From assembly GCA_043815505.1 (NCBI GenBank), contig JBDRIV010000003.1, positions 62,239 through 126,238 on the forward strand: a stretch of DNA of 64,000 nucleotides, read 5' to 3'. How positions within the stretch are numbered: position 1 is the first letter of the stretch; each line of letters opens with the position of its first letter. Shown here piece after piece: positions 895-62,976 of this stretch. Both the position numbers and the translations under genes were made by a program. The notes beneath the pieces were generated by a model. That model saw only the letters and a program-made list of their open reading frames with translations. It ran no database searches and was not told the DNA's origin. This DNA is from a bacterium. GTDB taxonomy: Bacteria > Patescibacteriota > JABMPQ01 > JBDRIV01.

Positions 895-2937
895 ATGAAA
901 TTTGAACTGGAAGCACAATTTAAACCAACTGGCGATCAGCCCCAAGCAATCGAAGAATTAACGATCCGTTTTAATGATGGCGTGAAACACCAGACTTTGC
1001 TGGGCGTCACCGGTTCGGGAAAAACTTTTACCATGGCCAATGTGATAAACAATATTCAGCGACCAACTTTAGTGATATCTCACAATAAAACTTTGGCCGC
1101 ACAACTTGCTTCGGAATTCAGAGAATTTTTTCCCAACAATGCAGTTCACTATTTCGTTTCCTACTACGATTATTATCAGCCAGAAGCTTATATCCCCCGC
1201 ACTGACACTTACATTGAAAAAGAAGTTGATATTAACGAAGAGATTGATAGATTGCGTCACGCCGCCACTCATTCCCTCGCCACCAGAAAAGATGTCGTTA
1301 TTGTTGCTTCCGTTTCTTGTATTTACGGTCTCGGTCATCCCGATGATTACAACAAACTAAAAGTGGAATTGAAAAAGGGTATGTCCGTTCCGCGCGAAGA
1401 AATTGTGAAAGGATTGGTTAACATTCGCTACAATCGCAACGACATAGATTTTCATCGCGGGACATTTCGGGTTCGCGGCGATGTTTTAGACATCTTTCCA
1501 GCCGATGCGGAAAATATGATTCGCGCCGAATTTTTTGGCGATGATCTAGAAAGGATTTTGGAATTAGATCCCTTAACTGGTGAAGTATTGCGCGAATTAG
1601 AAGAAGAATTTATTTTCCCCGCTACTCACTTTGCCACCACCGATGACAAATTGAAAAAGTCTACCAGTATCATCAGCAAGGATTTGGCTGAGAGAATTAA
1701 AGAATTGAAAAAAGATAATAAACTAATTGAAGCGCAAAGAATTGAACAGCGAACCAATTATGATTTAGAAATGATTGAGGAAATTGGTTTCTGCAATGGC
1801 ATTGAAAACTATTCCCGCTATTTCGACGACAGAAAACCCGGCCAACCTCCATTTACATTAATAGATTATTTCCCCAAAGATTTTGCTATGTTTATTGATG
1901 AATCACACATGACCATCCCCCAAATCCGTGGTATGTACTTTGGCGATCGCGCGCGCAAAGAAAATTTGGTGGATCATGGTTTTCGCTTACCATCTGCTAT
2001 GGATAACCGTCCGCTAAATTTCGCTGAATTTGCCAAGCGCGTTAATCAAGCAAGTTATGTTTCTGCCACACCTGGTCCGTACGAATTAAAAAAGTCTGGT
2101 ATAAAATCTGGTTTAATAAAAGACGCTTTTGCTAAAAAAGATGTCCGCGCCAATGTTTCTGAGCAAATTATTCGACCAACTGGTTTAATTGACCCAGAAA
2201 TTGAAATCAGGCCGAGTAAAAATCAAATTGATGACTTATTAGAAGAAATTAAAAAGCGTACTGCGAAAAAACAGCGAGTTCTGGTTACCACTTTAACTAA
2301 GCGTATGGCAGAAGATCTGGCTGAATACTTGAAAGAGGCTGGAATTAAGGGCCATTATCTTCATTCCGAAGTTGACACCTTTGAGCGACTAGAGACACTC
2401 CGGGACTTACGCACTGGTAAATATGATGTGGTGGTAGGAATAAACTTGCTTCGCGAGGGACTAGATTTACCCGAAGTTTCGCTCGTGGCCATAATTGATG
2501 CTGATAAAGAGGGGTTTTTGCGCTCAGAGACTTCACTTATCCAGATTATGGGTCGCACCGCCAGACATGTTGAGGGACAAGTTATAATGTATGCTGATAA
2601 AACCACTCGTAGTATGAAAAACGCTATTTCTGAAACCCGCAGACGACGAAAGATACAGAAACAATATAACGAAAAACATGGCATTACGCCGAAAACAATT
2701 GAAAAAGCCATTACGAATGAAAGATTGGCGGGAGCAAAAACTTCTGCAGACAGAACTGTGGCAGATCTACCGACCAAAGAAATTCCGCAAGAAGAACTCC
2801 CCCGTTTAATCAAGGACTTGGAACAACAAATGGAATTAGCTGCTAAAAATTTAGAATTTGAAAAAGCAGCTGAATTAAGAGATCAAATTGGAGAAATCAA
2901 AGAAGCCAACAAAAAAAATAGGAAACTTGGAAACTGA
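895..2937 (+). CDS. uvrB: Excinuclease ABC subunit B (UvrB)
   Basis: 680 aa. Walker [16 protein letters not shown], helicase motifs, and C-terminal UVR domain ([12 protein letters not shown]). Confidence 0.95.
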
Positions 2938-3310
2938 ACCAGAATTTGTTCGTCAGCTTTTTATTACCTTTTTTATAACCAGTAGCATCTGGTTTTTTAT
3001 TTCGCTTGGTAAATTCATTTTCACTCCCCGTTTTGATAGCTCTGGTTATATTTTAACTTTGGTTTTGTTTTTACTTAGCTTGGCAATGATTTTAATTTTA
3101 CTATTTCCTAAAATAAGAAATTCTTTTATATATTCTTTAATGGTTGCCAGTTTTGCCTTTTTGTTAATTTTTTCTGGCAACCAAATATTACAAAAATCGG
3201 AAGCAGTTTGCCAGACAATAAAAAACTCTGAGTGGCAACAAGAATATTATTCTCTCGCCGGCCAAGCTTTGCAGAAGGAAACAAAAGAAAAACTGGCAGA
3301 GTGTTTGTAA
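2888..3310 (+). CDS. Hypothetical small membrane protein (3-4 TM helices)
   Basis: 140-aa ORF overlapping the uvrB 3' end. Hydrophobic segments, and followed directly by a hairpin terminator. No recognisable family. Confidence 0.3.
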
Positions 3311-4157: not shown

Positions 4158-5021
4158 ATGACTTCAGGATTCTTTTTAATAAATAAAGAAAAAGGGCCAA
4201 CATCATTTGATATTGTCAGTCGTGTTCGTAAAACTTTCGATATTAAAAAAGTTGGTCATGCCGGAACGCTAGATCCGCTAGCATCCGGTCTTTTAATTGT
4301 GGTTGTTGGCAATGGAACCAAGTTATTAGAATATGTTGTTGGTCACAATAAAACTTATGAAGCAGAAATAAAATTAGGTTATGAAACTGAGACTTATGAC
4401 CGAGAAGGAGAAGAAATTGTTATTGATAAAAAATTTGAACCGTCTAAAAAAGAAGTTATTGATATACTAAAATCTTTCTTAGGAAAGCAACAACAAGTTC
4501 CTCCTATCTATTCGGCTAAAAAACAAGACGGAAAACCTCTTTACAAAAAAGCTCGTGCTGGAGAAAAAGTTAAAGCAAAATCTCAAGATGTAGAAATTCT
4601 GAATTTAAAGCTAACGGAATACAAATTTCCTTTTGTAAAATTTAGTGTCGAATGTTCTTCTGGAACCTACATTCGCTCTCTTGCTTACGACATTGGTAAA
4701 AAACTAAAAACGGGTGCTTATCTCTCCAAATTGAAAAGAAACAAGATTGGAAGCTTTAATATAAAGGACGCCAAAGAAACTACTAAAATATCTACCAAAG
4801 ATATGAAACCACTGGTTGAACTTTTGCCAGAAATGCCAAAGTTAATAGTTTCTCCTGCGGAAATTGAAAAAATTAGAAACGGCCAACCTTTGCATAGAGT
4901 GTTTCGCGCGAAACACTCTATGGTAATGTTAATTGATAACAAGAATAATTCCATCGCCATTGCTTCTTATGATAAAAAGGTCAAATTGCTAAAACCCAAA
5001 AAAGTCTTAATCAGCTCTTGA
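4158..5021 (+). CDS. truB: tRNA pseudouridine(55) synthase TruB
   Basis: Catalytic motif GHAGTLDPLASGLL. The track ORF starts at a TTG at 4146, but the ATG at 4158 right after the suhB-like stop is the more likely start. Confidence 0.9.
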   Translation: MTSGFFLINKEKGPTSFDIVSRVRKTFDIKKVGHAGTLDPLASGLLIVVVGNGTKLLEYVVGHNKTYEAEIKLGYETETYDREGEEIVIDKKFEPSKKEVIDILKSFLGKQQQVPPIYSAKKQDGKPLYKKARAGEKVKAKSQDVEILNLKLTEYKFPFVKFSVECSSGTYIRSLAYDIGKKLKTGAYLSKLKRNKIGSFNIKDAKETTKISTKDMKPLVELLPEMPKLIVSPAEIEKIRNGQPLHRVFRAKHSMVMLIDNKNNSIAIASYDKKVKLLKPKKVLISS

Positions 5022-5070
5022 TTATTATTTTTTTCCTGTTATACTAAATTTTGATTCATAAATTATTGAA

Positions 5071-5349
5071 ATGCCAATAAAAGCATCTGCAAAAAAACAC
5101 CTAAGACAATCTAAAAAGAGACACGAACATAATGTGGGTATTAAAAGACAAATGCATCATATTTCGCGTGAAGTTCGTGATTTGTCCGCGGCTGGAAAAA
5201 AAGACGATGCTGAAAAAGCGCTTGTTAAAGCTTATCAAACTTATGATAAAGCTGCTAAAAGAGGAATTATTCATAAAAATGCCGCTTCCAGAACAAAAGC
5301 TAGATTATCAAAAGCTGTGAAAAATACGGAAAAGAAAAAATCTGAATAA
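5071..5349 (+). CDS. rpsT: 30S ribosomal protein S20
   Basis: 92 aa, highly basic, N-terminus MPIKASAKKHLRQSKKRHEHN. Characteristic S20. Confidence 0.85.
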   Translation: MPIKASAKKHLRQSKKRHEHNVGIKRQMHHISREVRDLSAAGKKDDAEKALVKAYQTYDKAAKRGIIHKNAASRTKARLSKAVKNTEKKKSE

Positions 5350-5363
5350 ATTATATTTTAAAA

Positions 5364-5387
5364 ACCTCGCTAGTTGCGGGGTTTTTT
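5364..5387 (+). terminator. Rho-independent terminator after rpsT
   Basis: CCTCGC-TAGTT-GCGGGG stem (one G-U pair) followed by TTTTTTG. Confidence 0.6.
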
Positions 5388-5390
5388 GAT

Positions 5391-5420
5391 TGACAAATTT
5401 AGCTTGTTTGATATAAAGAA
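5391..5420 (+). promoter_or_regulatory. Putative promoter (TTGACA -35) for the pentapeptide-repeat gene
   Basis: Consensus TTGACA followed about 17 nt later by an A/T-rich -10-like hexamer. A strong RBS AAAGGAGG lies 8 nt before the ATG at 5473. Confidence 0.3.
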
Positions 5421-5472
5421 GTGATTTATTAGTTAGATTAACGTACATTTAAAATGTAAAGGAGGACGAGAG

Positions 5473-6318
5473 ATGTCTTTGAAAAATGAGATGTGGGAAG
5501 TTTTGAAAACACAAGGCGCTGAAGCTTTCAACAGAATGCGTAAAGAAGAACCTGGTTTCCGTCCTAATTTTTCCGGTTATGATTTCCGCGGTTTGGAAAT
5601 TGAGGGAATTGATCTTTCTTTTGCAAATCTTACCGAAGCTAACTTTCGAGAGATGACAATTCACAAAGCAGATTTCTCTCATGCTTCAATGTCCCATGCC
5701 AATCTTTCCTTCAGCGTGCTCTGCGACACCAGGTTTGATGCAGTTAAATCAGAATGCATCGAAATTATGAACAGCAAAGTCTTCAACTGCATTTTCGACC
5801 AAGCAAAAATGGTGGAAGCTAATATGGCTAGAACTATTTTTGTAGGTGGTCACTTCTACGGCGTTAATCTGCTTAAGTCTTATTTGACTGATTCTGAATA
5901 CTGCTTACAGGGAGAGCATGGCGGAGCTATGACAGATTGTAATCTGCGAGGGGCTGAATTAAGCAATGCAGTCTTTCGTGGTTTGCTCATGGGTGGAACG
6001 GATTTTCGAGGTGCCACCATGCGCGGAACCGATCTTCGTCTGGCCAATCTGCGCGGTTGTATTTTTAAAGACCGCGAGGTCTCGAGAGCAAAGCTTAAAG
6101 GCGCTCACATTACTGTTCAGACTACAAATGGTTTTACCGAAGCGCGAATTTTAGAAGTTCTGCCCCTTAGCTGTTCTGATATAAGTGAGATCATACCTTC
6201 TTCAGCAAGTGAAGGTCATGAATTTTTTGTCACTTGGCAAGACTTGATTGTTAATATTCGCACCCTGCCCACTGAGCCTGGCTGGGATCCTTTCGACATC
6301 AACTACCTTAATTTGTAG
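5473..6318 (+). CDS. Pentapeptide-repeat protein
   Basis: 281 aa with many tandem A(D/N)LxX pentapeptides (ANLTEANFREMTIHKADFSHASMSHANLSFSVL, RGAELSNAVFRGLLMGGTDFRGATMRGTDLRLANLRGC). Confidence 0.8.
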   Translation: MSLKNEMWEVLKTQGAEAFNRMRKEEPGFRPNFSGYDFRGLEIEGIDLSFANLTEANFREMTIHKADFSHASMSHANLSFSVLCDTRFDAVKSECIEIMNSKVFNCIFDQAKMVEANMARTIFVGGHFYGVNLLKSYLTDSEYCLQGEHGGAMTDCNLRGAELSNAVFRGLLMGGTDFRGATMRGTDLRLANLRGCIFKDREVSRAKLKGAHITVQTTNGFTEARILEVLPLSCSDISEIIPSSASEGHEFFVTWQDLIVNIRTLPTEPGWDPFDINYLNL

Positions 6319-8879: not shown

Positions 8880-9262
8880 CGCGGCCGAATCTTCTTCGAA
8901 GCGCACGATATCATTCTCGTCAAGAATCGAACCGTATCAAATCTCGACAATGCGCAGATAAGTGGTAGCGGCACTGTCCATTCGGTGCCACTGTCCGCGA
9001 AGAATTGTTTCGGTACTGCCAAAGCAAACCAATTTGAGATCATCATTAATGGTCACAGTACCGATGTCGTCTACGACTTGCCACAATTCATCGCGACCTT
9101 TGTGTGACTGCAAGCTGAGCCCCTGACCCGGTTTGACAAATATTTCCCTGACAACGGACCGCCTTGATTTCGAACCATCCCCAAGGACGTTCATCTCTGT
9201 GACCAATATCCTCCTAAGTATAAATCTCTGTCATCGTCCTTCCCTCCCTATAAAAGAATGTA
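8880..9262 (-). pseudogene. Frameshifted cupin (mannose-6-phosphate-isomerase-like) paralog, GC-rich
   Basis: Conserved cupin motifs are spread over three frames (DERPWGWFEIKAV / VREIFVKPGQGLSLQSHKGRDELW / DENDIVRFEEDSAA). They are colinear with the intact paralog at 9803..10183. Local GC is about 50% versus about 35% background. Confidence 0.55.
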
Positions 9263-9342
9263 TGACACATTCGATTTGTAAAACAACATTTCCAATAAAA
9301 TTATTATCTAATTCCAAACCTGTCAATTTTTTTATAATAATT

Positions 9343-9387
9343 TAAAACCTCGCTGTTGAATCAAATCTAGATTCATAAGCGAGGTTT
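9343..9387 (-). terminator. Hairpin AAACCTCGC-N27-GCGAGGTTT downstream of the 9392..9787 gene
   Basis: 9-bp perfect stem with a large loop, flanked by A/T runs. Confidence 0.35.
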
Positions 9388-9391
9388 GAAG

Positions 9392-9787
9392 TTATGCGAG
9401 TTTGGCAGGGTTGATGTTTTTTTCAGCTATTTTTGCCAATAACGTTGCACAGAAAGTTTGAATGCGAACTGATTTCTTAAATTCGGGAGGGATTATTTCT
9501 TCGACTGTAATTGGTGAGCCAAAAACGGTGGCCATGTGTAGGCATCTGCAGAAACGTCTGCAATCGAAATCTCCTGTAATTTCATTCTGCCGAATAGCAT
9601 CTTGAATATGAAAAATGCATTGAGCTCTTTTTTGGCTTCTTTTTTCCTCTTTTTTTCTGGCTCGTTCATCTTCTGATTCGATTGAATTTTTGAGCTGTTT
9701 TATAATGCCATTGGCCCATAATTCAAAATTTTTTATAGTGGTCTCTGCTACAAACGTTTTTCCCTTACCCCCATTTACCATGTGCAT
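9392..9787 (-). CDS. Hypothetical protein (131 aa)
   Basis: ORF between the two cupin copies. Charged K/E-rich middle section and Cys cluster CRRFCRC. No family recognised. Confidence 0.4.
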   Translation of the reverse strand: MHMVNGGKGKTFVAETTIKNFELWANGIIKQLKNSIESEDERARKKEEKRSQKRAQCIFHIQDAIRQNEITGDFDCRRFCRCLHMATVFGSPITVEEIIPPEFKKSVRIQTFCATLLAKIAEKNINPAKLA

Positions 9788-9802: not shown

Positions 9803-10183
9803 TTATTCTCGACCGTATTCGTCTTCATGCCGAACAATATCATTTTCGTCAATAACTTCTCCTAAAGAAACTTCAATAATCTTGATGTGTGTTTTTATTC
9901 CACTGGCAAGACGATGTTTTGTCTTCTTATCAATAAAAAACATGTGACCAACTGAAGCTTCAGAGGCATCGCTACCGATAAGCACAAAACCATCTCCCTC
10001 AATAACACTCCAAAACTCTATCCGATGTTCGTGATGTTGCAAACTAATAATACTGTTAGGATTAACGTAGATCTCCTTTACAACGTAGCCCTTTTCCACG
10101 GCAAGAATTTTAAAGTAACCCCACGGACGTTCTTCTTTGTAACCAACGTCTTTCTGGTTCCAAACACGGGTACCATTATTCAT
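9803..10183 (-). CDS. Cupin-domain protein (mannose-6-phosphate isomerase type II C-terminal-domain-like)
   Basis: 126 aa. ERPWGYFKIL...LQHHEHRIEFWSVIEGDG cupin motifs. Strong RBS AAGGAGG upstream. Confidence 0.7.
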   Translation of the reverse strand: MNNGTRVWNQKDVGYKEERPWGYFKILAVEKGYVVKEIYVNPNSIISLQHHEHRIEFWSVIEGDGFVLIGSDASEASVGHMFFIDKKTKHRLASGIKTHIKIIEVSLGEVIDENDIVRHEDEYGRE

Positions 10184-10281
10184 TTCGAATTCCTCCTTAT
10201 ATTATAGAAAGAGCGTACTATAACTCATATAAAACATTGCTTAATAATCTATTACTTTATGTTATTTTTGTCAATTTATAA

Positions 10282-10358
10282 GCACATTTCTGTTACAAAA
10301 ACATCTAGTGCCAATACTCCCGATTGTTTCCCGTTTTTTATATCTTCGTCAGCTGTAT
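10282..10358. repeat. Direct repeat copy A, a duplicated holA 3' end
   Basis: About 77 bp, about 90% identical to 11423..11499. Its reverse complement still encodes ...TADEDIKNGKQSGVLALDVFVTEMCL*, which is nearly the HolA C-terminus. Confidence 0.8.
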
Positions 10359-10389
10359 TGACTTTTTATTTTTTGTGTAAGCATGAGAT

Positions 10390-11406
10390 TCAGACAAAAG
10401 CTTTTAGAATCTTGTGTCTGAGTGTATTATTGCGTAATAAAAATGTAAAAAGTTCGAAACAAACTGGTCGAATAACTCCTGCTGATTCAATAATACGTGC
10501 GAGTGTTTCATGTCGTCTTTTTACACGCAATAACTGATCAATTTTAAGCGGTTTGTATTCCGGATCAATGATTAATTTTGCCACTTCTGCACCTGTAACC
10601 ATAGCAAAGTACATTCCCTCACCGGTTAAACTAGAGGTAAAACCAGCGGCATCACCAACTAAAAACATATTGTCAAATTTATAACCACGATAATCACAAT
10701 TTATTGATGCCGCTTCAAATTTAGCATCAGCTACATCAATGTTTTTTTGCTTAAGCCACTTATGAAAATTTGATCGGAGCTCGGATGCAGAAATGGATTC
10801 AGGACTGCCATAAACACCAATAGAAGTATAGTTACGATACGGAAAAATCCAAGCGTAACCTGAGGCAAAATATTTATTATCAAAAAAATTTTTCAAATAC
10901 TTAAATTTCTGCTTAGTAATATAATGCATACCAATTCCTATTTTTTTCATGGGAATATTCAATGATCTTCGGACTATAGAATTGCTACCATCAGCACCAA
11001 TTAAATAATCAAATTTTATTTCTCTATTACCAATCATTACTGAATTATCATTTATTTTAGTGACACGCATTCCGATTTCTAAGATTGCGCCTTGTTTTTG
11101 TGCTTCCGACGCCATCCACTGTCCTAACCTTTCCCGACTAATAGTAGCAATGCTTGGTTCCTTTGTTTTTACCACTACTCGCTGATAAGGAGTATATTGA
11201 ATTGGTTTGTGAAAAAAGTATTCCACTAAATCTTTTGGAATTCCTAAATCCATAATTTTAGTAGTAAGCCCTCCGCCGCAAATTTTAGGACCAATTATTT
11301 CTTTCTGTTCTATTACTAAAACTTGCCGACCAGCAGCGGCTAGTTTCTGAGCACAATGCAAACCGCCTGGACCAGCACCTATTATTATTGTTTCATATTT
11401 CTCCAT
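10390..11406 (-). CDS. FAD-dependent oxidoreductase, geranylgeranyl-reductase family
   Basis: 338 aa. N-terminal Rossmann motif IIIGAGPGG and the typical length and layout of GGR-family flavoproteins. Confidence 0.75.
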   Translation of the reverse strand: MEKYETIIIGAGPGGLHCAQKLAAAGRQVLVIEQKEIIGPKICGGGLTTKIMDLGIPKDLVEYFFHKPIQYTPYQRVVVKTKEPSIATISRERLGQWMASEAQKQGAILEIGMRVTKINDNSVMIGNREIKFDYLIGADGSNSIVRRSLNIPMKKIGIGMHYITKQKFKYLKNFFDNKYFASGYAWIFPYRNYTSIGVYGSPESISASELRSNFHKWLKQKNIDVADAKFEAASINCDYRGYKFDNMFLVGDAAGFTSSLTGEGMYFAMVTGAEVAKLIIDPEYKPLKIDQLLRVKRRHETLARIIESAGVIRPVCFELFTFLLRNNTLRHKILKAFV

Positions 11407-11416
11407 CTCATTTTAT

Positions 11417-12370
11417 TTATGAACACATTTTGGTAACAAAAATATCTAACGCCAATAATCCTGATTGTTTCCCGTTTTTTATATCTTCGTCAGCTGTATA
11501 AAGTTTTTCCATCATTTGTTTCAATTCTTCAGAGGAAAAGTTTCTTGTTTGCTCCAGAGATTTTTTTACTACAAAGGGATGAAGTTTGGCTTCGCGGGCA
11601 ATTTGGTATTCATTCACTCCCCGCTCTTGTAAATCTTTTACAATTAGAAGATTTCTTAATTGGTACTGAATCATGGTCATCATGTAAAGTTCGTGTTTGC
11701 CAGTTTTCATTTCTGTATGAAGAAAGGTTAAAGCTTCTTGTTTATTTTTTCTGCCCAGAGCATCTGTGAAAGCAAAAATATTTTCCTGGAAGGTTGGAGC
11801 TACCAATTTTTCTACATCGGCCACTGAAATTTCCAAACCATCTTTGTATAATGCTAATTTCTCCAATTCAATATCAATTCGATTTAAATCGCTACCGACA
11901 AACTGAATTAATTTACCTAGAGCCTCACTATTAATTTTTGCTTCTTTTTGAGCAACTAATTCTTTTACATAATTCGTAAGAGCTAATCCTGTGAGCAAAT
12001 CAAATTCCTCAGCTGTTTTTGATTTGTTAAGAAATTTAAATAGTTTTATTCTTTTATCTGGAATTTCCTTTTCCCAAATTAACAAAACTGTGGATTCAGG
12101 AACTTTATTTTCTTCTAAAACTTCAGCTAAACTATCTTTAAATTCTTTTTTACCTTTACTCAAGGCGTTTTCCAAAAGTACTAATCTGGTTTTATTCAAA
12201 AATGGCATAGTAGAAATTTCAGACTTAACTTTGGCTAAATTTAAATCTGCATCTTTAAGATGAGAGAAATTTAATTCCCCATTTTGACTGGCTTTTAAAA
12301 ACTTGTCCTTGAAGGTTTTAACTTTTTGTCCGGAGCGATAAGTATCTTCTCCGAATAAGAAATAGATCAT
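11417..12370 (-). CDS. holA: DNA polymerase III delta subunit (HolA)
   Basis: 317 aa. N-terminus MIYFLFGEDTY and overall delta-subunit layout. Sits directly downstream of polA. Confidence 0.75.
   Translation of the reverse strand: MIYFLFGEDTYRSGQKVKTFKDKFLKASQNGELNFSHLKDADLNLAKVKSEISTMPFLNKTRLVLLENALSKGKKEFKDSLAEVLEENKVPESTVLLIWEKEIPDKRIKLFKFLNKSKTAEEFDLLTGLALTNYVKELVAQKEAKINSEALGKLIQFVGSDLNRIDIELEKLALYKDGLEISVADVEKLVAPTFQENIFAFTDALGRKNKQEALTFLHTEMKTGKHELYMMTMIQYQLRNLLIVKDLQERGVNEYQIAREAKLHPFVVKKSLEQTRNFSSEELKQMMEKLYTADEDIKNGKQSGLLALDIFVTKMCS
11423..11499. repeat. Direct repeat copy B, the native holA 3' end
   Basis: Encodes HolA C-terminus ...TADEDIKNGKQSGLLALDIFVTKMCS*. Matches copy A at 10282..10358. 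Confidence 0.8.
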
Positions 12371-12466: not shown

Positions 12467-15196
12467 TTACAAGTTAATTTCTTTCTGAGTAACGCAGGGG
12501 GACATATTATTCCAATTTGGCCCACTGGCTGCTTCCACTTTAATGGGAACTTTTAGTTGATACGCTTTTTCCATTAAATCTTTGATTGTGGCTGCATATT
12601 TGTTTACCATAGAACTTTTCACTTCGAAAAGCAACTCATCATGCACTTGCACTAACATTTTTATATCTTTCTTATTTGGTAGTAAAATCTTTTCAAAAAC
12701 TTTTTGCATGGCAATTTTAATAATGTCTGATGTTGTTCCTTGAACCGGCATATTGATTGCCATTCTTTCTGCACCAGCGGTAACCTGATATTGCCCCGAA
12801 TTTATCTCGGGAATATAACGCCGACGCCCAAGCATTGTTTCCACATATTCTTTGTCGCGCGCTTCCGCGACAATCTTTTCCATGTAATCTTGAATCTTTG
12901 GATATTTGGCAAAATAAGTGTCAATAAAATCTTTGGCCTTTTTTCTCTCAATGCTTAAAGTTTGCGAGAGCCCATAAGGACTCATACCATAAACCACACC
13001 AAAGTTTACTGTTTTAGCAATGCGACGTTCATCTTTAGAAATATCTTTAGCATCCTTTTCAAAAACCGTAGCAGCAGTTTGCGTATGAATGTCGGCACCC
13101 GATTTGAAAGCTTTAATCATTGCCTCATCACCTGCAATATGAGCCAAAACTCGCAAATCAATTTGGGAGTAATCACATGATAAAAGCGTATTACCGCGCG
13201 TGGCCACAAAAGCTTCGCGGATTTTTCTGCCTTCTTCGGTGCGAATCGGAATATTCTGCATATTAGGATCTGAAGATGACAAACGACCAGTGGCAGTTAC
13301 CGCTTGATTAAATGAAGCATGAATTCTATTTGTTTTCTTATTAATCAATTTGGGTAGAGAATCTACGTAAGTTGATTTTAATTTTGTCAGTTCGCGATAA
13401 TTTTCAATTAATGAAACTATTTCGTGTTTATCTTTTATTTTCTGCAATTCTGGAGAAGCAGTCGAAAAACCAGTCTGCGTTCTTTTAATTCCAACGGTTG
13501 GTAACTTCATCACTTCAAATAGTATATGAGATAATTGCTGAGTAGAATTGATATTGAAGTCTTTACGTCTGGCTTTTTTGTAAATATTTTTCTCTAAGCT
13601 TTTTATTTTGACTCTAAATATTTTGGAAATTTCTTTTAAGTATTTATCATCAATTGAAATACCGTTTAGTTCCATGTCAGCCAACACTTTTACTAGAGGC
13701 ATATCAATCTGGGAAAATACTTCTTGAAGTTTTGCTTCCTTGGCTAATTCTTTAGAAAATCTTGCTTGTAAACGAAATGTAATGTCAGCATCTTCAGCGG
13801 CATATTCTGCAATTCTTTTGGGGTCAATGTCCGTAATTGATTGCTTATCTTTTCCCTTGCCAACTAAATCGTCCCAGGTAATCATTGGTAATTGAAATTC
13901 TTCTATGGCTAAACGAGTTAGATTGTGCTGACGAGATCCTGGATTTAATAAATAGGAAGCTAGCATGGTATCAAAAGCAATTCCCTGCATATCAACTCCG
14001 GCGTTTAATAAAACAATATAATCATATTTAATATTGTGGCCGAATTTTTTAATTTTGTTGTTTTTTAAAACGGGTTTAAATATTTCTAGCAAATTATTTT
14101 GATAACAGTGTACATAATATGCTGTGCGCTCTTGGAAACAAAAAGAAATTCCCACTAATTCCGCTTGCACGGGAAATTCACTGGTCGTTTCGGTATCTAC
14201 TGCTATTTCTGATTGTTTGCTTAATTCTGAAACTAATTTTTTTGCTTCCGCTTCGTTATCAATCAAAATATAATTCCTAGCTGAATCTTTTTTGTTCGTT
14301 ACTTCTGGTTCATTTTGACCAATAACTTTTGGTAACAAGCTTTTAAATTCATATTTTTGAAAAAGCTTTACCGTTTGTGGATTTTTAAAATCAGGGACCG
14401 TGCATTTCTGCAAATCAAATTCAATTGGAACATCGGTAACAATAGTAGCCAATTCTTGGCTTAAATAAGATTCTTTTTTGTGTTCCAATAAAAGTTTAGC
14501 TGTGCGTGGTTTCATTTTGCCACCGCCATCTCCATGCTTGCCTACAAATTCATAAATCTTATCAAGCGTTCCAAATTCTTTTAACAAATCAACGGCGCCC
14601 TTATCACCAATTCCTTTAACACCAGGGATGTTGTCGGAAGAATCACCAGCAATGGATTTGTAATCAACTAATTGCTTGGGTTTAATTCCAAATTTTTCTT
14701 CCACTCCTTTTTCGTCAAATATTGTGGTTTCAGAAACGCCACGTTTCATGGTATAAACTTTGGTGTTTTTATCAACCAATTGAAAAGCATCTTGATCACC
14801 CGTGACAATAATGGTTTCTAAATCTTTTTGGCTATCTAACATTTTAGAAACCGTTCCAATCACGTCATCTGCTTCATAGCCCTGCTGAACATAAATGGGA
14901 ATATTTAATTTCTCTACTATTTCTTTCACGGTTTCCACTTGCTGATACAACTCGTCTGGGGCTTTTACTCTGGTTGCTTTATAATCGGCAAAAGATTCGT
15001 GACGAAAAGTGGGTCCTTTTAAATCAAAAGAAACGGCTATGTAATCTGGTTTTATCTCTTCTAGGGCCGAAAATAAAATTCGAGTAAAACCATAAACCGC
15101 TCCAATAGGTTCGCCCGCTTTAGTAGTCAGGGGGGGCATAGCGTGAAATGCGCGATGAATTAAAGCGTGACCGTCAATTATAACAAATTTTTTCAT
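12467..15196 (-). CDS. polA: DNA polymerase I
   Basis: 909 aa. 5'-3' exonuclease N-terminus, 3'-5' exonuclease domain, and polymerase motifs RRIAKTVNFGVVYG and VHDELLFE. Confidence 0.95.
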   Translation of the reverse strand: MKKFVIIDGHALIHRAFHAMPPLTTKAGEPIGAVYGFTRILFSALEEIKPDYIAVSFDLKGPTFRHESFADYKATRVKAPDELYQQVETVKEIVEKLNIPIYVQQGYEADDVIGTVSKMLDSQKDLETIIVTGDQDAFQLVDKNTKVYTMKRGVSETTIFDEKGVEEKFGIKPKQLVDYKSIAGDSSDNIPGVKGIGDKGAVDLLKEFGTLDKIYEFVGKHGDGGGKMKPRTAKLLLEHKKESYLSQELATIVTDVPIEFDLQKCTVPDFKNPQTVKLFQKYEFKSLLPKVIGQNEPEVTNKKDSARNYILIDNEAEAKKLVSELSKQSEIAVDTETTSEFPVQAELVGISFCFQERTAYYVHCYQNNLLEIFKPVLKNNKIKKFGHNIKYDYIVLLNAGVDMQGIAFDTMLASYLLNPGSRQHNLTRLAIEEFQLPMITWDDLVGKGKDKQSITDIDPKRIAEYAAEDADITFRLQARFSKELAKEAKLQEVFSQIDMPLVKVLADMELNGISIDDKYLKEISKIFRVKIKSLEKNIYKKARRKDFNINSTQQLSHILFEVMKLPTVGIKRTQTGFSTASPELQKIKDKHEIVSLIENYRELTKLKSTYVDSLPKLINKKTNRIHASFNQAVTATGRLSSSDPNMQNIPIRTEEGRKIREAFVATRGNTLLSCDYSQIDLRVLAHIAGDEAMIKAFKSGADIHTQTAATVFEKDAKDISKDERRIAKTVNFGVVYGMSPYGLSQTLSIERKKAKDFIDTYFAKYPKIQDYMEKIVAEARDKEYVETMLGRRRYIPEINSGQYQVTAGAERMAINMPVQGTTSDIIKIAMQKVFEKILLPNKKDIKMLVQVHDELLFEVKSSMVNKYAATIKDLMEKAYQLKVPIKVEAASGPNWNNMSPCVTQKEINL

Positions 15197-25679: not shown

Positions 25680-26483
25680 CTATTTTGCTATGCTAGTTAG
25701 ATGTTTTTTGGCTTTGAGTAGTAGTTTCTTGTCATTTTCGTGATCAAGCTGAGCGAGCGCTTTAGAAAAGCTTAGCCACTTGGTATTTTTAATTTCCCAG
25801 GATTTTTCAATTTCTTTTGTCTTGGTTGATGCTAAATAATATATTGTATCTTTATCAATTAATTTTCCCTCTCTTTGATATTTCCAGGTTACAGATTCTT
25901 TAAATTTGGGAATAAACTTTAATTTTTCTACACCCACTTCTTCATCAACCTCTCTAATGACTGTCTGTTTAGGAGTCTCTCCTTTGTCAATATTTCCTTT
26001 GGGAAATCCCCAATATGACCACTGACTAGATTGAACAATTAGAAATTTTTTAAAATCATCGGAAACGATAATTACACCAGCTGAGTGTTCTTCGCTTCTT
26101 TTGTCCTGCCCACGAAATAGTAACCAAGCTTTATCACCAGCTTTAGTAAATTTTTTCAAAACATAAACCCCTTTTAATTTTTTACCAGCAAACAAAACTT
26201 GAATAGTTTTAGAAGTATTCATCATTAATTCAAAAACACCAGTGTCCCAAATTTCTACTTTGCCAGCACCATGTTGTCCAGCTGATATCTCACCGGAAAA
26301 TTTAGCATATGACATATCATGATCCTCAACCTGAATAGCTAAACGTTTGGCTTTACCTCGCTGGGGAATTCCTTTAGGTACAGCCCAAGATTTTAAAACA
26401 CTATTAATTTCCAGTCGCAAATCAAAATGTTTATTTTTAGCACTGTGTTGATGAATTACAAAGATTGGATTTTTATTTGTCAT
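25680..26483 (-). CDS. Fusion protein: LigD-type 3'-phosphoesterase domain + NUDIX hydrolase
   Basis: N-terminal FVIHQHSAKNKHFDLRLE...SWAVPKG...KRLAIQVEDHDMSY...GAGKVEIWDTG matches the LigD PE domain. C-terminal GNIDKGETPKQTVIREVDEEVGV is a NUDIX box. Confidence 0.65.
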   Translation of the reverse strand: MTNKNPIFVIHQHSAKNKHFDLRLEINSVLKSWAVPKGIPQRGKAKRLAIQVEDHDMSYAKFSGEISAGQHGAGKVEIWDTGVFELMMNTSKTIQVLFAGKKLKGVYVLKKFTKAGDKAWLLFRGQDKRSEEHSAGVIIVSDDFKKFLIVQSSQWSYWGFPKGNIDKGETPKQTVIREVDEEVGVEKLKFIPKFKESVTWKYQREGKLIDKDTIYYLASTKTKEIEKSWEIKNTKWLSFSKALAQLDHENDKKLLLKAKKHLTSIAK

Positions 26484-39910: not shown

Positions 39911-41602
39911 ATGCCCAAAAACCAACCAGCTGACCGCTTGACCAAAGGTACGTACGGAAACTACCAAAGCGGCAAGCAAGAAAAACTAAGCAAAAAACTT
40001 TCTTCCCTTTCTGAAGCTGCTTTAGAAAACCAAGTTGAGCAGACAGCCGAAAGAAATGGTATGCGTTACGCTAATTTGCGTGGCTTCCCGATTGATCAGG
40101 AAGCTATGATTTTGGTTCCGGAAGAAGAGGCACGCGATAATAATTACGCCATCATTAATCGCCAAGGGAAAAATTTGGTTGTGGTTACAACTATTCCTAA
40201 TAACGAAAAAATTCGTGATTTGTGGCGTCGGATGGAAGATGAAAATGGATATACCATTGCCACTAAATATTTGGTTTCGCAAAGCAGTTTTGATTATCTT
40301 TTAAATCTTTACAAAACTGCTCCGAAAATTATCGTGGCCACCAATGATGTTGATATCACAGCAGAATCTTTATTGAAAGCGCAAGAAGAAGTAAAAAATA
40401 TTGAGGCTTTGAAAGGAAAAATTCGCGAAGTAGAAACTTCCGAATTACTGGAACTAATTATTGCTGGTTCGGTGGCTTCAAAATCTTCTGATATTCACAT
40501 TGATCCTGAAAAAGAACAAGTACAATTACGTTACAGAATTGATGGAATTTTGCAGAATGTTACTACTATTCCTCACAACACTTACAAAAGAGTTTTATCG
40601 CGCGTAAAACTTTTAAGTGGGATGAAATTAAATATTTCTAATGTCCCTCAAGATGGCCGCTTCACTATTGATTTAGGTGAAGGCCGAGCAATTGATTTAA
40701 GAATTTCTCTTTTACCAACAGCTTATGGCGAAACTTTGGTTATAAGATTACTCGGAACTGGTGAAACTTCGTTGTCAGTTAAAGATTTGGGAATGCGCGG
40801 TGACGCCTTAAAAATTATTGAAGAAGAAATTGCCAAACCAAATGGCATGATTCTAACCACCGGTCCGACTGGTTCTGGTAAAACAACTTCTCTGTATGCT
40901 TTTATAAATAAAATTAAAAAGCCGGAAATAAATATTATCACTTTGGAAAATCCGATTGAGTATCGTTTAGATGGAGTTTCTCAAACTCAAATTGATACCG
41001 ACGCCGGCATGACTTTTGCTTCCGGATTGCGTTCCATTTTACGTCAGGATCCAGATGTAATTATGGTTGGTGAGATTCGCGATTTGGAAACGGCGGAAAT
41101 TGCTTGTCAGGCAGCGCTCACTGGTCACATTGTTTTCTCAACCCTACATACCAATGATGCGTCAGGTGTAATTCCTCGTTTTATAAATATGGGAATTCGT
41201 CCTTTTGTTTTAGGTCCAGCACTTAATGCTATGATTGCTCAACGTTTGGTCAGACGCCTTTGTGAAAAATGTAAAATATCCTATAAACCAGATATGATTT
41301 TATTGGATAAAATGAAAGAAGAAATGGCTCAACATTATCCTAAAAAAGTTAGTAAGTTCTACAAAGCTAATCCTGAAGGTTGCAAAGAATGTAGTTTAAC
41401 TGGTTATAAAGGCCGGGTAGGAATTTATGAAGTAATTAGAAATGATAAATTTATTAGGTCATTAATTGACGCTAGGGCTTCAGCTGATGAAATAATTGAT
41501 GCCGCTGCTAGAAAACAAAATACCGTCTTTATGAGACAAGACGGCTTGTTGCGCGTAATTGAAGGTATTACTTCTTTAGAAGAAATTGATCGTGTAACAT
41601 AA
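39911..41602 (+). CDS. pilB: Type IV pilus assembly / type II secretion ATPase (PilB/GspE family)
   Basis: 563 aa. Walker A GPTGSGKTTS, Asp box, His box, and the tetracysteine motif CEKC...CKEC. Confidence 0.9.
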   Translation: MPKNQPADRLTKGTYGNYQSGKQEKLSKKLSSLSEAALENQVEQTAERNGMRYANLRGFPIDQEAMILVPEEEARDNNYAIINRQGKNLVVVTTIPNNEKIRDLWRRMEDENGYTIATKYLVSQSSFDYLLNLYKTAPKIIVATNDVDITAESLLKAQEEVKNIEALKGKIREVETSELLELIIAGSVASKSSDIHIDPEKEQVQLRYRIDGILQNVTTIPHNTYKRVLSRVKLLSGMKLNISNVPQDGRFTIDLGEGRAIDLRISLLPTAYGETLVIRLLGTGETSLSVKDLGMRGDALKIIEEEIAKPNGMILTTGPTGSGKTTSLYAFINKIKKPEINIITLENPIEYRLDGVSQTQIDTDAGMTFASGLRSILRQDPDVIMVGEIRDLETAEIACQAALTGHIVFSTLHTNDASGVIPRFINMGIRPFVLGPALNAMIAQRLVRRLCEKCKISYKPDMILLDKMKEEMAQHYPKKVSKFYKANPEGCKECSLTGYKGRVGIYEVIRNDKFIRSLIDARASADEIIDAAARKQNTVFMRQDGLLRVIEGITSLEEIDRVT

Positions 41603-58309: not shown

Positions 58310-59617
58310 TTATCCTTCGAGTTTACTCTGAACTTTTTCAGCGGTAGCTCTTTTTGTTTCCACCGAAACCAGAGCCAATAAAATCCAAAACAAAACTGCT
58401 AAATCATTCTTAAAATACGGAACATCCACCAAGCCCTGCACAATTATGGCCAAGGCTGCGGCTGCTAGTCCGATAAGTAATGGTGAGGAATTAAGGGTGG
58501 CCAAAAACTTTTTGCCCTTCGGTAAAAAGAATTTTTCTAATATGAGTAAATATGAAAGCAGTCCGAACAATCCTAGCTCCGTCCAAAAATTCAAAATCAA
58601 ATTATGCGGATAAACCAGAATTTCTGTGTGTTTATCCAGTTTGTATTCAGCATAACGCGCTTCAAAGCCGGTTAATCCCACTCCCAAAATTGGATTATCT
58701 TTTACCATGTTTAGTGAGCCTTCCCACAAAGCTAAGCGCACATCTCCTGAGACGTCTTGAAAAGAAAGTAATTTGGTTGTGTAGTCGCGCGTGGTAGGAA
58801 CGGCAAATATTACAATTGCCAAAACTAAGACCACGCCAATTGCATAAAGACGCCACTTACTTATTAATAAAATTCCCAGCATGGCAGCAGCAATTGCTAG
58901 AATTGCTCCCTCAGAAACTGCAAAGGCAGTGGCTAAAATTCCTAAAACTACAACTAACCAAGAAACAATTCGCAAAGGTTTTTTTACGAATTCATTTTTA
59001 GTAGAAATTGCTAGAGCGAAAAACAAACTTATTAGCGGTGCTAAATACAAACCGACGGCATTGGGATAGGGAAATATTGAAGTTACTCTTCTTCCTTCTT
59101 CAACGGCCCATGGTTCTGGAATGCCATATCCTATAAATTTTTGCCAGATGGCATAAACTGAAATTAGCAAAACTGAAGCACCTAGTCCCAGCAAAATACA
59201 TTTTTCTTCTTTCATGCCTTTGGCCATCGCTAAGATCATTATGAAAACGAGTAGCGGTTCTAAAAAGTAAGCGCGCCAAATTCCTAGGGCTGGTAATAAT
59301 TCTGGGGCTGCGAAAACAGAAATTACTGAAGCAAGCAAAAATACAAAAATTGGCAGGAGCAATTTTTGGTTACGTAAGCGAATACGAGTTTGTTTGCAAT
59401 GAAAGTTAAATTTCTTTTTGCGTAGATCATCAACTACCCAGGCTACAAATAAAATTAAAATCGCGATTTCTAAAAAAGTTGTCGGCAGTCCCCCAATAGA
59501 AAAACGAATAACATACAACGGCAAAAAGAAAGCGATTAGTTTTAAGCTAAATTTCGGTTTATAAAAAGAAACCACGGCAAAAGCAATTAAAATGATTGTG
59601 ATAAGTGTAATTTCCAT
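58310..59617 (-). CDS. O-antigen ligase-like polytopic membrane protein
   Basis: 435 aa, about 12 TM helices with Wzy_C-like topology. Confidence 0.45.
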   Translation of the reverse strand: MEITLITIILIAFAVVSFYKPKFSLKLIAFFLPLYVIRFSIGGLPTTFLEIAILILFVAWVVDDLRKKKFNFHCKQTRIRLRNQKLLLPIFVFLLASVISVFAAPELLPALGIWRAYFLEPLLVFIMILAMAKGMKEEKCILLGLGASVLLISVYAIWQKFIGYGIPEPWAVEEGRRVTSIFPYPNAVGLYLAPLISLFFALAISTKNEFVKKPLRIVSWLVVVLGILATAFAVSEGAILAIAAAMLGILLISKWRLYAIGVVLVLAIVIFAVPTTRDYTTKLLSFQDVSGDVRLALWEGSLNMVKDNPILGVGLTGFEARYAEYKLDKHTEILVYPHNLILNFWTELGLFGLLSYLLILEKFFLPKGKKFLATLNSSPLLIGLAAAALAIIVQGLVDVPYFKNDLAVLFWILLALVSVETKRATAEKVQSKLEG

Positions 59618-62329: not shown

Positions 62330-62355
62330 ATTTTTACTTTATGAATAATAATCTT

Positions 62356-62420
62356 ATCCTACCAAAAAACCGCCCTTCTGTATATTAAGCTTGCTCTGAG
62401 TTTATCGAAGAGGCGATTTT
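62356..62420 (-). terminator. 65-bp terminator module, copy 1 (direct repeat of 62858..62920)
   Basis: About 97% identical to copy 2. On the minus strand it forms a CGCC-CTTC/GAAG-GGCG hairpin followed by GTTTTTTGGTAGGAT. Confidence 0.55.
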
Positions 62421-62424
62421 CCTA

Positions 62425-62829
62425 TTAATTTTTCAAATTATAGGATTCTTTTATCCATCCAATGAATTCAATATCTATTTCTTTTTTGTCGTAAACCATA
62501 AAGCAGTTCTTGTAAACTTTAGCCGACATTTTAACGCATTGTTTTAACCTTTTGCTATTTATTTTTTTATCAAGCGCAAAGCGAATTTCTAATCCATCTT
62601 TTTTGGGAAGAGCTGCTAAAAAATCATAATTGCCAAATAAATGAATACAACAGGGAATAGAAATTATTTTACATTTACCAATTTTTTTATCTATTTGTTT
62701 AACTAAATAATCAAATAGTTCCTTGGTTTTATCCTTGTTCTTAAAATGTTCGCCCAAAGAAACTTTCTTACAACTATGAGGCTGCTTGGCTTTATTAAAT
62801 TGTCTACCGCACTTTGAACAAGTCCACAT
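62425..62829 (-). CDS. Zinc-ribbon protein of unknown function
   Basis: 134 aa. N-terminal WTCSKCGRQF...HSC zinc ribbon. Resembles the N-termini of DUF5655-type proteins (recollection only). Confidence 0.35.
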   Translation of the reverse strand: MWTCSKCGRQFNKAKQPHSCKKVSLGEHFKNKDKTKELFDYLVKQIDKKIGKCKIISIPCCIHLFGNYDFLAALPKKDGLEIRFALDKKINSKRLKQCVKMSAKVYKNCFMVYDKKEIDIEFIGWIKESYNLKN

Positions 62830-62857
62830 ATTTTGATAATGAATGTTTATTTATTAT

Positions 62858-62920
62858 CATCCTACCAAAAAACCACCCTTCTGTATATTGCTTGCTCTGA
62901 GTTTATCGAAGAGGCGATTT
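62858..62920 (-). terminator. 63-bp terminator module, copy 2
   Basis: See copy 1. Follows the 62977..63468 gene. Confidence 0.55.
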
Positions 62921-62976
62921 TTTGTTTAAAAAAAGAACAGGTGAATCCGTCTAGGTTTCACCTGTTTAATTTCTGT

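Follow-up and report, generated by a model that had tools for sequence, protein, structure and literature searches.

A geranylgeranyl-reductase-like gene between two diverged copies of the holA 3' end in a metagenome-assembled bacterial genome

In a 64-kb stretch of contig JBDRIV010000003.1 (hereafter the window, meaning that whole stretch), which comes from a metagenome-assembled genome of a very small, uncultured bacterium, a single gene for a 338-residue oxidoreductase dependent on flavin adenine dinucleotide (FAD) and resembling geranylgeranyl reductases (hereafter GGR) is framed on either side by a copy of the holA 3' end (holA encodes the delta subunit of DNA polymerase III). One copy is the working end of holA itself and the other is an orphan tail on the far side of GGR. 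We see an even chance that GGR was acquired by recombination with incoming DNA that carried the gene together with a slightly diverged last ~85 bp of holA. A sequence-only reading of the window had called the arrangement the footprint of an insertion into the holA 3' end; an insertion with GGR as sole cargo is indeed the best reading of the structure, which resembles icd and icdC around the Escherichia coli element e14, but the copies were not made at insertion. Judging by the names of homologues, the host would belong among Patescibacteria-type bacteria.

A single oxidoreductase gene lies between two holA tails

The genes concerned follow one another on the minus strand in the order polA (12467-15196), holA (11417-12370), the 338-residue FAD oxidoreductase (10390-11406) and a cupin gene (9803-10183). 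The features of the locus, with the evidence for each, are:

11417-12370, minus: holA, DNA polymerase III delta subunit, 317 residues, intact with complete C-terminal domain (open reading frame [ORF], Pfam, TIGR01128, MFH1509153.1)
11415-11499, minus: repeat copy A, functional holA end (last 27 codons) plus 2 nt, attL-like (repeat search, alignment)
11463-11499, minus: 37-nt block of copy A, shared without mismatch by copy B, where the crossover is proposed (mismatches begin at index 37)
11407-11416, minus: 10-nt spacer from the holA stop to the GGR start, containing GGAG (sequence, promoter scan)
10390-11406, minus: cargo, GGR-like FAD-dependent oxidoreductase, 338 residues, sole gene between the repeats (ORF, profile matches, MFH1509152.1)
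10359-10389, minus: trailer of 31 nt that runs from the GGR stop (TGA) to copy B (alignment, sequence)
10274-10358, minus: repeat copy B, orphan holA tail, attR-like (repeat search, alignment)
10322-10358, minus: 37-nt identical block of copy B (alignment)
10246-10274, minus: promoter-like TTGACA-17-TAGATT, 10 of 12 positions (promoter scan, sequence)
9803-10183, minus: cupin of the mannose-6-phosphate isomerase C-terminal type, 126 residues (ORF, profile match)

Repeat searches of the locus and of the whole window returned a two-copy direct repeat (10274-10367 and 11415-11508) with a spacing of 1141 nt; the window has just one other close-range repeat of this kind. The ungapped homologous block is 85 nt long (10274-10358 versus 11415-11499) and 75 of its 85 positions are identical (88.2%); blastn of the 600-nt upstream flank of GGR against the downstream flank gave an E-value of 4e-22, and a 38-nt core pattern occurred exactly twice in the window versus not once in 100 dinucleotide-preserving shuffles. 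The duplication that the sequence-only reading saw around the oxidoreductase gene is real, and the alignment bore out its coordinates, the identity it gave and both of its HolA C-terminal peptides (native TADEDIKNGKQSGLLALDIFVTKMCS and orphan TADEDIKNGKQSGVLALDVFVTEMCL, each followed by a stop). The inner 77-nt piece that it had proposed to align (10282-10358 with 11423-11499) is significantly similar, with 9 mismatches (88%).

In the direction of holA, the repeat starts 27 codons before the holA stop, and the homology is gone 2 nt past that stop. Copy B reads as 26 sense codons plus TAA without a frameshift and is part of no ORF; since it has no start codon, it is predicted to be untranslated. 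A read-through fusion of GGR with the orphan tail was considered and rejected: the tail is in the GGR frame, yet TGA and TAA intervene. The second of these in-frame stops lies in the 31-nt trailer, which has no similarity to the holA sequence upstream of copy A. On its other side the orphan tail abuts a near-consensus -35/-10 site, in that TTGACA-17-TAGATT begins at the last base of the tail, and AGGAGG and then the cupin gene lie downstream. That the homology ends 2 nt past the stop and that the orphan tail abuts this site are as expected for the native end of holA, and the cupin gene was probably the original downstream neighbour of holA. The promoter scan found no strong promoter-like site before GGR (the only candidates score 9 of 12), and GGR appears to be read within the holA transcription unit through the GGAG ribosome-binding site.

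The holA gene itself is complete. Its product scored 239.2 bits against TIGR01128 (cutoff 80) over residues 2-315 of 317, which places it in that equivalog family, and aligned with the whole of Pfam DNA_pol3_delta_C (1-121 of 121), DNA_pol3_delta being matched as well. The holA and GGR proteins carry consecutive NCBI accessions (MFH1509153.1 and MFH1509152.1) and are encoded on a contig of 183.5 kb. We also considered an alternative code with TGA as a sense codon and rejected it, as 10 of 62 genes end in TGA and the long ORFs are intact under table 11. The window ORFs of at least 100 residues that we scanned were all housekeeping or envelope-related, e.g., uvrB, truB, polA, ruvB, clpB, thyA, folA, valS, yidC and glycosyltransferases.

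The two tails are identical over 37 nt and diverged beyond

Read on the minus strand, the first 37 bases are the same in both copies (11499 to 11463 and 10358 to 10322), and the 10 mismatches are confined to the final 48 nt. By chance, all ten would spare the first 37 positions with a probability of 0.002, and a perfect run of at least 37 anywhere would have a probability of 0.023. We read an identical core followed by diverged arms as the probable trace of a crossover between two diverged sequences. The ten differences comprise six synonymous and four non-synonymous changes (L/V, I/V, K/E and S/L), with no indel and with the stop kept. Under random substitution the probability of six or more synonymous changes with the stop kept is 0.014, which rejects pure neutral drift; accordingly, both tails were still coding while much of the divergence built up. 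The sequence-only reading had spoken of a duplicated target made at insertion, and here it does not hold up, given the number of differences, their synonymous bias and their position entirely 3' of the 37-nt identical block. The copies are two diverged holA tails, one of them probably brought by the insert, and not a fresh target-site duplication.

The cargo gene and its relatives

From its profile and structure matches, the cargo is predicted to be an FAD oxidoreductase of the geranylgeranyl-reductase superfamily. Its score against TIGR02032 (156.4 bits) was just under the cutoff (158.8), and its best match among solved structures was the archaeal lipid reductase 3oz2, a digeranylgeranylglycerophospholipid reductase, at an E-value of only 8e-10; the GGR-like protein has 338 residues versus 397 in 3oz2. 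In the protein collection the nearest homologue of GGR was 54% identical and the nearest homologue of HolA 43%. Comparing 10 independent GGR-clade loci, we found that the neighbours were all different and that holA stood alongside in none; nor was there a GGR downstream of holA in the two closest HolA loci. Neighbourhoods so varied, and never with holA, fit an accessory, acquired gene. Homologues of the ~340-residue protein at 42-47% identity carried names from Patescibacteria and from DPANN-type archaea (Woesearchaeota, Nanoarchaeota), which suggests that the family is shared or exchanged between two groups of ultra-small organisms. As a family common to both, going by those names, it is a candidate marker of gene flow.

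Every GGR locus that we fetched was checked for direct repeats between its two flanks. The closest GGR homologue (P0002, 54% identical; locus L004, JGI Ga0373626_0022191) proved to be bracketed by a perfect 22-nt repeat, GTGCGGGAGGTGGGATTTGAAC, at a spacing of 1100 nt; one copy forms the last 22 nt, at the 3' end, of a tRNA-Leu(CAG) gene on the minus strand (6042-6128), whereas its counterpart at 4942-4963 is an orphan fragment. GGR is the sole gene between the repeats of this unit (4942-6128) and is convergent with the tRNA. The tRNA segment from the T-loop to the 3' end is a classical target of tyrosine integrases, and the D-arm and acceptor stem of this tRNA-Leu are, we assume, archaeal in appearance. 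The same structure is present in L005 (Logan SRR11721626), i.e., in two independent assemblies from two samples, and a cluster member on a 14-kb contig (P0227) is at least 90% identical to the L004 GGR. By eye, the non-coding ends of the window unit and of the L004 unit share no terminal sequence.

A GGR homologue with 48% identity, in locus L042 (JGI Ga0366838_1040409, 2041-3179), showed a 79-nt repeat with 94% identity. Here the repeated segment is the gene's own upstream 40 nt plus its first 13 codons, which reappear 6 nt past the stop, ACG standing in place of ATG. Three FAD-oxidoreductase paralogues lie in tandem at this locus, and a 19-nt exact match at the GxGxxG motif ties the end of the fragment to the third of them.

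As a control, the same comparison of flanks was made for 147 ORFs from the window and all loci at a threshold of 36 bits. Flank repeats of at least 36 bits were found at 5 of the 147, and 3 of these were GGR genes. By Fisher's exact test, GGR loci (3/10) differed from other genes (2/144) with p = 0.002; leaving out the window locus (2/9) gave p = 0.017, and counting only repeats of a neighbour's 3' end, again with the window excluded (1/9 versus 0/144), gave p = 0.06. We regard the recurrence of flanking repeats at GGR loci as suggestive, not established. One of the two non-GGR matches in the control was a 52-nt direct repeat (85%) flanking an SLH-domain gene (1433-2104) in locus L035 (1318-2260).

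A possible route of acquisition

If GGR did arrive with its own holA tail, the intermediate would have been a circle of ~1.14 kb in the order core, holA tail, 10 nt, GGR and 31 nt. A single reciprocal crossover between this circle and the resident holA, within the 37-nt identical stretch, would fuse the resident holA body to the imported tail (11415-11462), running straight into GGR. The imported DNA would then comprise 11415-11462, GGR and the 31-nt trailer, and the original tail would be 10274-10321, stranded downstream with its core and attached to the native promoter and cupin neighbour. In this scheme holA stays intact, the repeats are attL/attR-like, and HolA would end in a foreign segment of 15 residues, giving it a chimeric C-terminus. 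The crossover may have been made by host homologous recombination on the 37-nt identity or by a tyrosine integrase acting in trans. The two repeats could recombine again, in which case a 1141-bp circle would loop out and holA would be restored with the orphan tail. The circular form, the assignment of the foreign tail and the enzyme are all points that we infer. In a variant, a linear donor would be anchored by the holA homology and joined illegitimately at the start of the core; the product would be the same, and the identical core would go unexplained.

Several observations weigh against acquisition by this route. The composition of GGR is host-like (z-scores of -0.3 for GC content, -0.9 for GC at third codon positions [GC3] and +0.3 for codon-usage likelihood), so that the gene is indistinguishable from the host in composition and codon usage and bears no compositional mark of foreignness. 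The check that the sequence-only reading proposed, a comparison of GC and codon usage of GGR with its neighbours, was thus negative, and its description of the acquisition as recent has no support. For recombination of the RecA type, 37 nt of identity is little. Neither the insert nor any of the window ORFs scanned (at least 100 residues) gave a match to a recombinase, a transposase or another mobility gene; the recombinase that would define the site-specific integration suggested in the same reading is accordingly missing from the 1.06-kb insert and from those ORFs. Searches of protein, genome, metagenome and viral collections gave no empty site or donor, and nothing closer than 43% (HolA) or 54% (GGR). 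The clustering of mismatches is a post hoc statistic and only moderately strong. A model with one neutral and one selected copy predicts by our own estimate ~38% synonymous changes versus 60% observed, with n = 10, and arguments of the synonymous or dN/dS (non-synonymous to synonymous rate ratio) type are at that number too weak by themselves to separate insertion from duplication in situ. Finally, L042 repeats the gene's own 5' region and not a neighbour's 3' end; it looks more like a partial tandem duplication, which fits that locus at least as well.

The searches behind these statements took several forms. Exact-sequence look-up of HolA and GGR in contigs gave no match, nor did the exact 32-mer of the core in metagenome contigs or a degenerate back-translation of ADEDIKNGKQS in viral contigs. 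A scan of the genome collection with HolA returned only a Falkowbacteria locus, 30% identical. An alignment-based metagenome scan for GGR yielded two useful loci, the rest being generic Rossmann-motif patterns, and no close GGR was found in viral contigs or plasmids. The neighbours of GGR in L004 and the family-less ORF at 9392-9787 of the window had no match in PHROGs.

Alternative explanations

The structure is also formally reachable without any import. GGR could already have stood behind holA, with a tandem duplication of the 1141-bp segment of holA tail plus GGR, deletion of the second GGR and drift of the orphan tail; we consider such an origin in situ unlikely, and if true the feature would be an ordinary rearrangement scar. 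The host-like composition of GGR agrees with it, the ratio of synonymous to non-synonymous changes taken alone does not reject one neutral and one selected copy, and L042 shows an apparent partial tandem duplication of a gene's own 5' end within a cluster of three paralogues. Against this, two rare events with tidy end points are required, the deletion having to run from 2 nt past the stop of the tail and to remove GGR with its leader. Such a history leaves unexplained why no change fell in the first 37 nt versus 10 in the next 48 (P = 0.002-0.02) and why there is no indel or stop, and it accounts neither for the duplicated tRNA-Leu 3' end at the closest GGR homologue nor for the absence of holA-GGR linkage in other loci.

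Rather doubtful, in our view, is that the locus is the relic of a larger integrase-bearing element (a prophage, plasmid or integrative element) that entered at the holA 3' end and was internally deleted down to GGR. The combination of an att-like identical core and a replaced 3' end is that of e14 at icd, and the repeat in the tRNA-Leu case spans the T-loop to the 3' end that integrases of the tyrosine type classically use. Moreover, elements that keep attL and attR without integration genes are a recognised class, the cis-mobilizable elements (CIMEs; PMC5704250). The deletion would have to extend from just inside attL to 10 nt before GGR and leave a perfect operon-like junction with a ribosome-binding site, and two independent GGR units (the window and L004) would both have to shrink to ~1.1 kb with GGR alone; there is no trace of element genes, and no related sequence in viral or plasmid collections. 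Random internal deletion would hardly produce an operon-like junction of 10 nt, or an L004 unit that is just as minimal, and we therefore favour a Campbell-type insertion or an integrase acting in trans over the decay of a larger element.

An assembly artefact, in which two strains, or a strain and a small circle, were joined through the shared 37-mer, is conceivable for a metagenome-assembled genome, but we think it very improbable. A mixture of strains cannot make the junction of GGR trailer and core, which some real molecule must have; the exact shared block is just 37 nt, below the usual final k-mers of assemblers; and the analogous L004 structure was assembled independently from two samples.

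A functional copy B, whether as the template repeat of a diversity-generating retroelement for the holA C-terminus, as an RNA element or as a terminator, can practically be dismissed: a gene 3' end with a near-identical copy nearby is the right position, and retroelement-guided diversification is common in this bacterial group, but no reverse transcriptase was matched among the scanned ORFs of the 64-kb window, the mismatches are not confined to adenine (3 of 10 involve A in either copy), copy B has no Rfam match, its fold is not unusual (z = -0.25) and no terminator was found near it. The mismatch spectrum together with the lack of a reverse transcriptase match effectively refutes the retroelement, and the scans for an RNA element or terminator at copy B returned nothing.

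Two further candidates were rejected outright. A target-site duplication of a transposon or insertion sequence is expected to be 2-15 bp and identical, and 85 nt at 88% is too long and too diverged; there was no transposase, and the repeat search found no inverted repeat at the insert boundaries. For an integron cassette there was no attC palindrome in 10185-10400, where no significant fold or palindrome of any kind was detected, and neither IntI nor attI was found.

Comparison with known insertions

A close parallel to GGR at holA is e14 of E. coli K-12. We measured the icd and icdC copies that flank e14 and found 165 nt shared at 92.7%, with 9 synonymous and 2 non-synonymous codon differences and the homology ending at the stop. 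Excision of e14 recombines icd with the orphan tail icdC (PMC13626634). As with e14 (and phage 21) at icd, the window insert has a housekeeping protein gene as its target, supplies a 3' end and leaves the target gene intact; as with icd and icdC, the original end persists on the far side as an untranslated fragment, the differences are mostly synonymous and the homology stops at the stop codon. The two differ in scale and content, e14 being 15.2 kb long and encoding intE and xisE, whereas the window insert (1.06 kb) has one metabolic gene and no recombinase was found in it. They differ also in that the e14 differences are spread along the repeat, whereas those in the window all lie 3' of the 37-nt identical block. 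Set against what marks an integrase-type element, the locus has repeats with an identical core and a replaced 3' end with a displaced fragment, and a recombinase gene is lacking from what we scanned.

CIMEs are att-flanked islands without integration and transfer genes (PMC5704250). The window insert likewise keeps attL/attR-like repeats with no mobility genes found, and thus has the form of a CIME; unlike one, it shows no sign of a parent element or helper and consists of a single promoterless gene in a genome of the candidate-phyla-radiation type. The CIMEs described in Firmicutes are decayed conjugative elements of several kb that a related element mobilises on entering the cell. Our viral and metagenome scans gave no element bearing this holA att sequence.

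Genes are reportedly captured at archaeal tRNA genes by integrases, between repeats that match the 3' part of the tRNA, and L004 is similar in that the 22-nt tRNA-Leu 3' end stands on both sides of GGR. Archaeal segments captured in this way are many kb long and keep the split halves of the integrase gene, whereas L004 and the window hold GGR only and the target in the window is a protein gene. Campbell-type integration of circular DNA by one homologous crossover gives the same layout, an insert between direct repeats of the target homology; a target gene whose 3' end is on the circle survives, and no dedicated recombinase is needed. It is known mainly as a laboratory tool with hundreds of bp of homology, whereas the window offers 37 identical nt inside an 85-nt similarity, and how a natural circle of 1.1 kb might arise is unexplained. 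Like an integron cassette, GGR is a single promoterless ORF of ~1 kb that would travel as a small circle and depend for its expression on a host promoter upstream, but there is no cassette array and the bracketing repeats are coding sequence derived from the target. The feature is, in sum, of a known kind, an insert that replaces the 3' end of its target gene, in an unusually small example without a recombinase and in a poorly studied lineage.

Were acquisition at holA true, a host-dependent bacterium with a reduced genome would have gained a metabolic gene without harm to an essential replication gene, since the incoming DNA supplies its own gene end, and its HolA would carry a foreign C-terminal helix. 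The minimal insert and the parallel tRNA-Leu unit raise the possibility that single genes are exchanged as small circles by host recombination or by a recombinase in trans. Speculating further, and with considerable doubt, GGR-like genes may travel among ultra-small bacteria and archaea as single-gene cassettes of ~1.1 kb without a recombinase, looping out and re-inserting through repeats of essential-gene 3' ends (holA here, tRNA-Leu in L004), with the host gene left intact but chimeric and the repeat-bracketed DUF5655 unit described below as another product. The archaeal part of this speculation rests on the tRNA type, as we take it to be, and on the names of homologues. The feature would gain in interest should the single-gene GGR units at these two sites turn out to belong to a cassette family that recurs.

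A seemingly variable zone around GGR and other observations in the window

The stretch between holA and an oppositely oriented purD-like gene looks like a small variable region. Besides GGR it holds the intact cupin gene, the family-less ORF at 9392-9787 and a decayed second cupin. The decayed cupin, also of the mannose-6-phosphate isomerase C-terminal type (~8890-9230, minus strand), has a frameshift and in-frame TAG and TGA stops and spans two frames; it is 39% identical to the intact cupin at 9803-10183 and has 48% GC versus 36% for the window. Older foreign DNA in this intergenic zone is its probable source. The ORF at 9392-9787 (minus strand, 131 residues) lies between the two cupins and matches neither Pfam nor PHROGs; behind it comes an inverted repeat of 26 nt (9337-9362 and 9370-9395, 85% complementary) resembling a terminator hairpin.

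A second single-gene unit bracketed by repeats was seen at 62349-62921, around a 134-residue DUF5655 gene (62425-62829, minus strand). The repeat is a promoter-like segment of ~70 nt (62349-62420 and 62852-62921) with a perfect block of 32 nt and a spacing of ~502 nt; the downstream copy starts 4 nt past the stop and serves the next gene, a NUDIX hydrolase. Among the window genes checked, the DUF5655 gene had the lowest GC fraction (0.286, z = -2.3). Two more genes, at 59617 and 61324, are preceded by a shortened form of the motif, GGTTTTTTGGTAGnAT.

Elsewhere in the window, a 267-residue protein (25680-26483, minus strand) has a LigD-type 3'-phosphoesterase domain (residues 3-127) joined to a Nudix/MutT-like domain (~135-260), and a pilus ATPase of the PilB/GspE/ComGA type (39911-41602) bears on DNA uptake, by which small DNA molecules, circular or linear, might enter.

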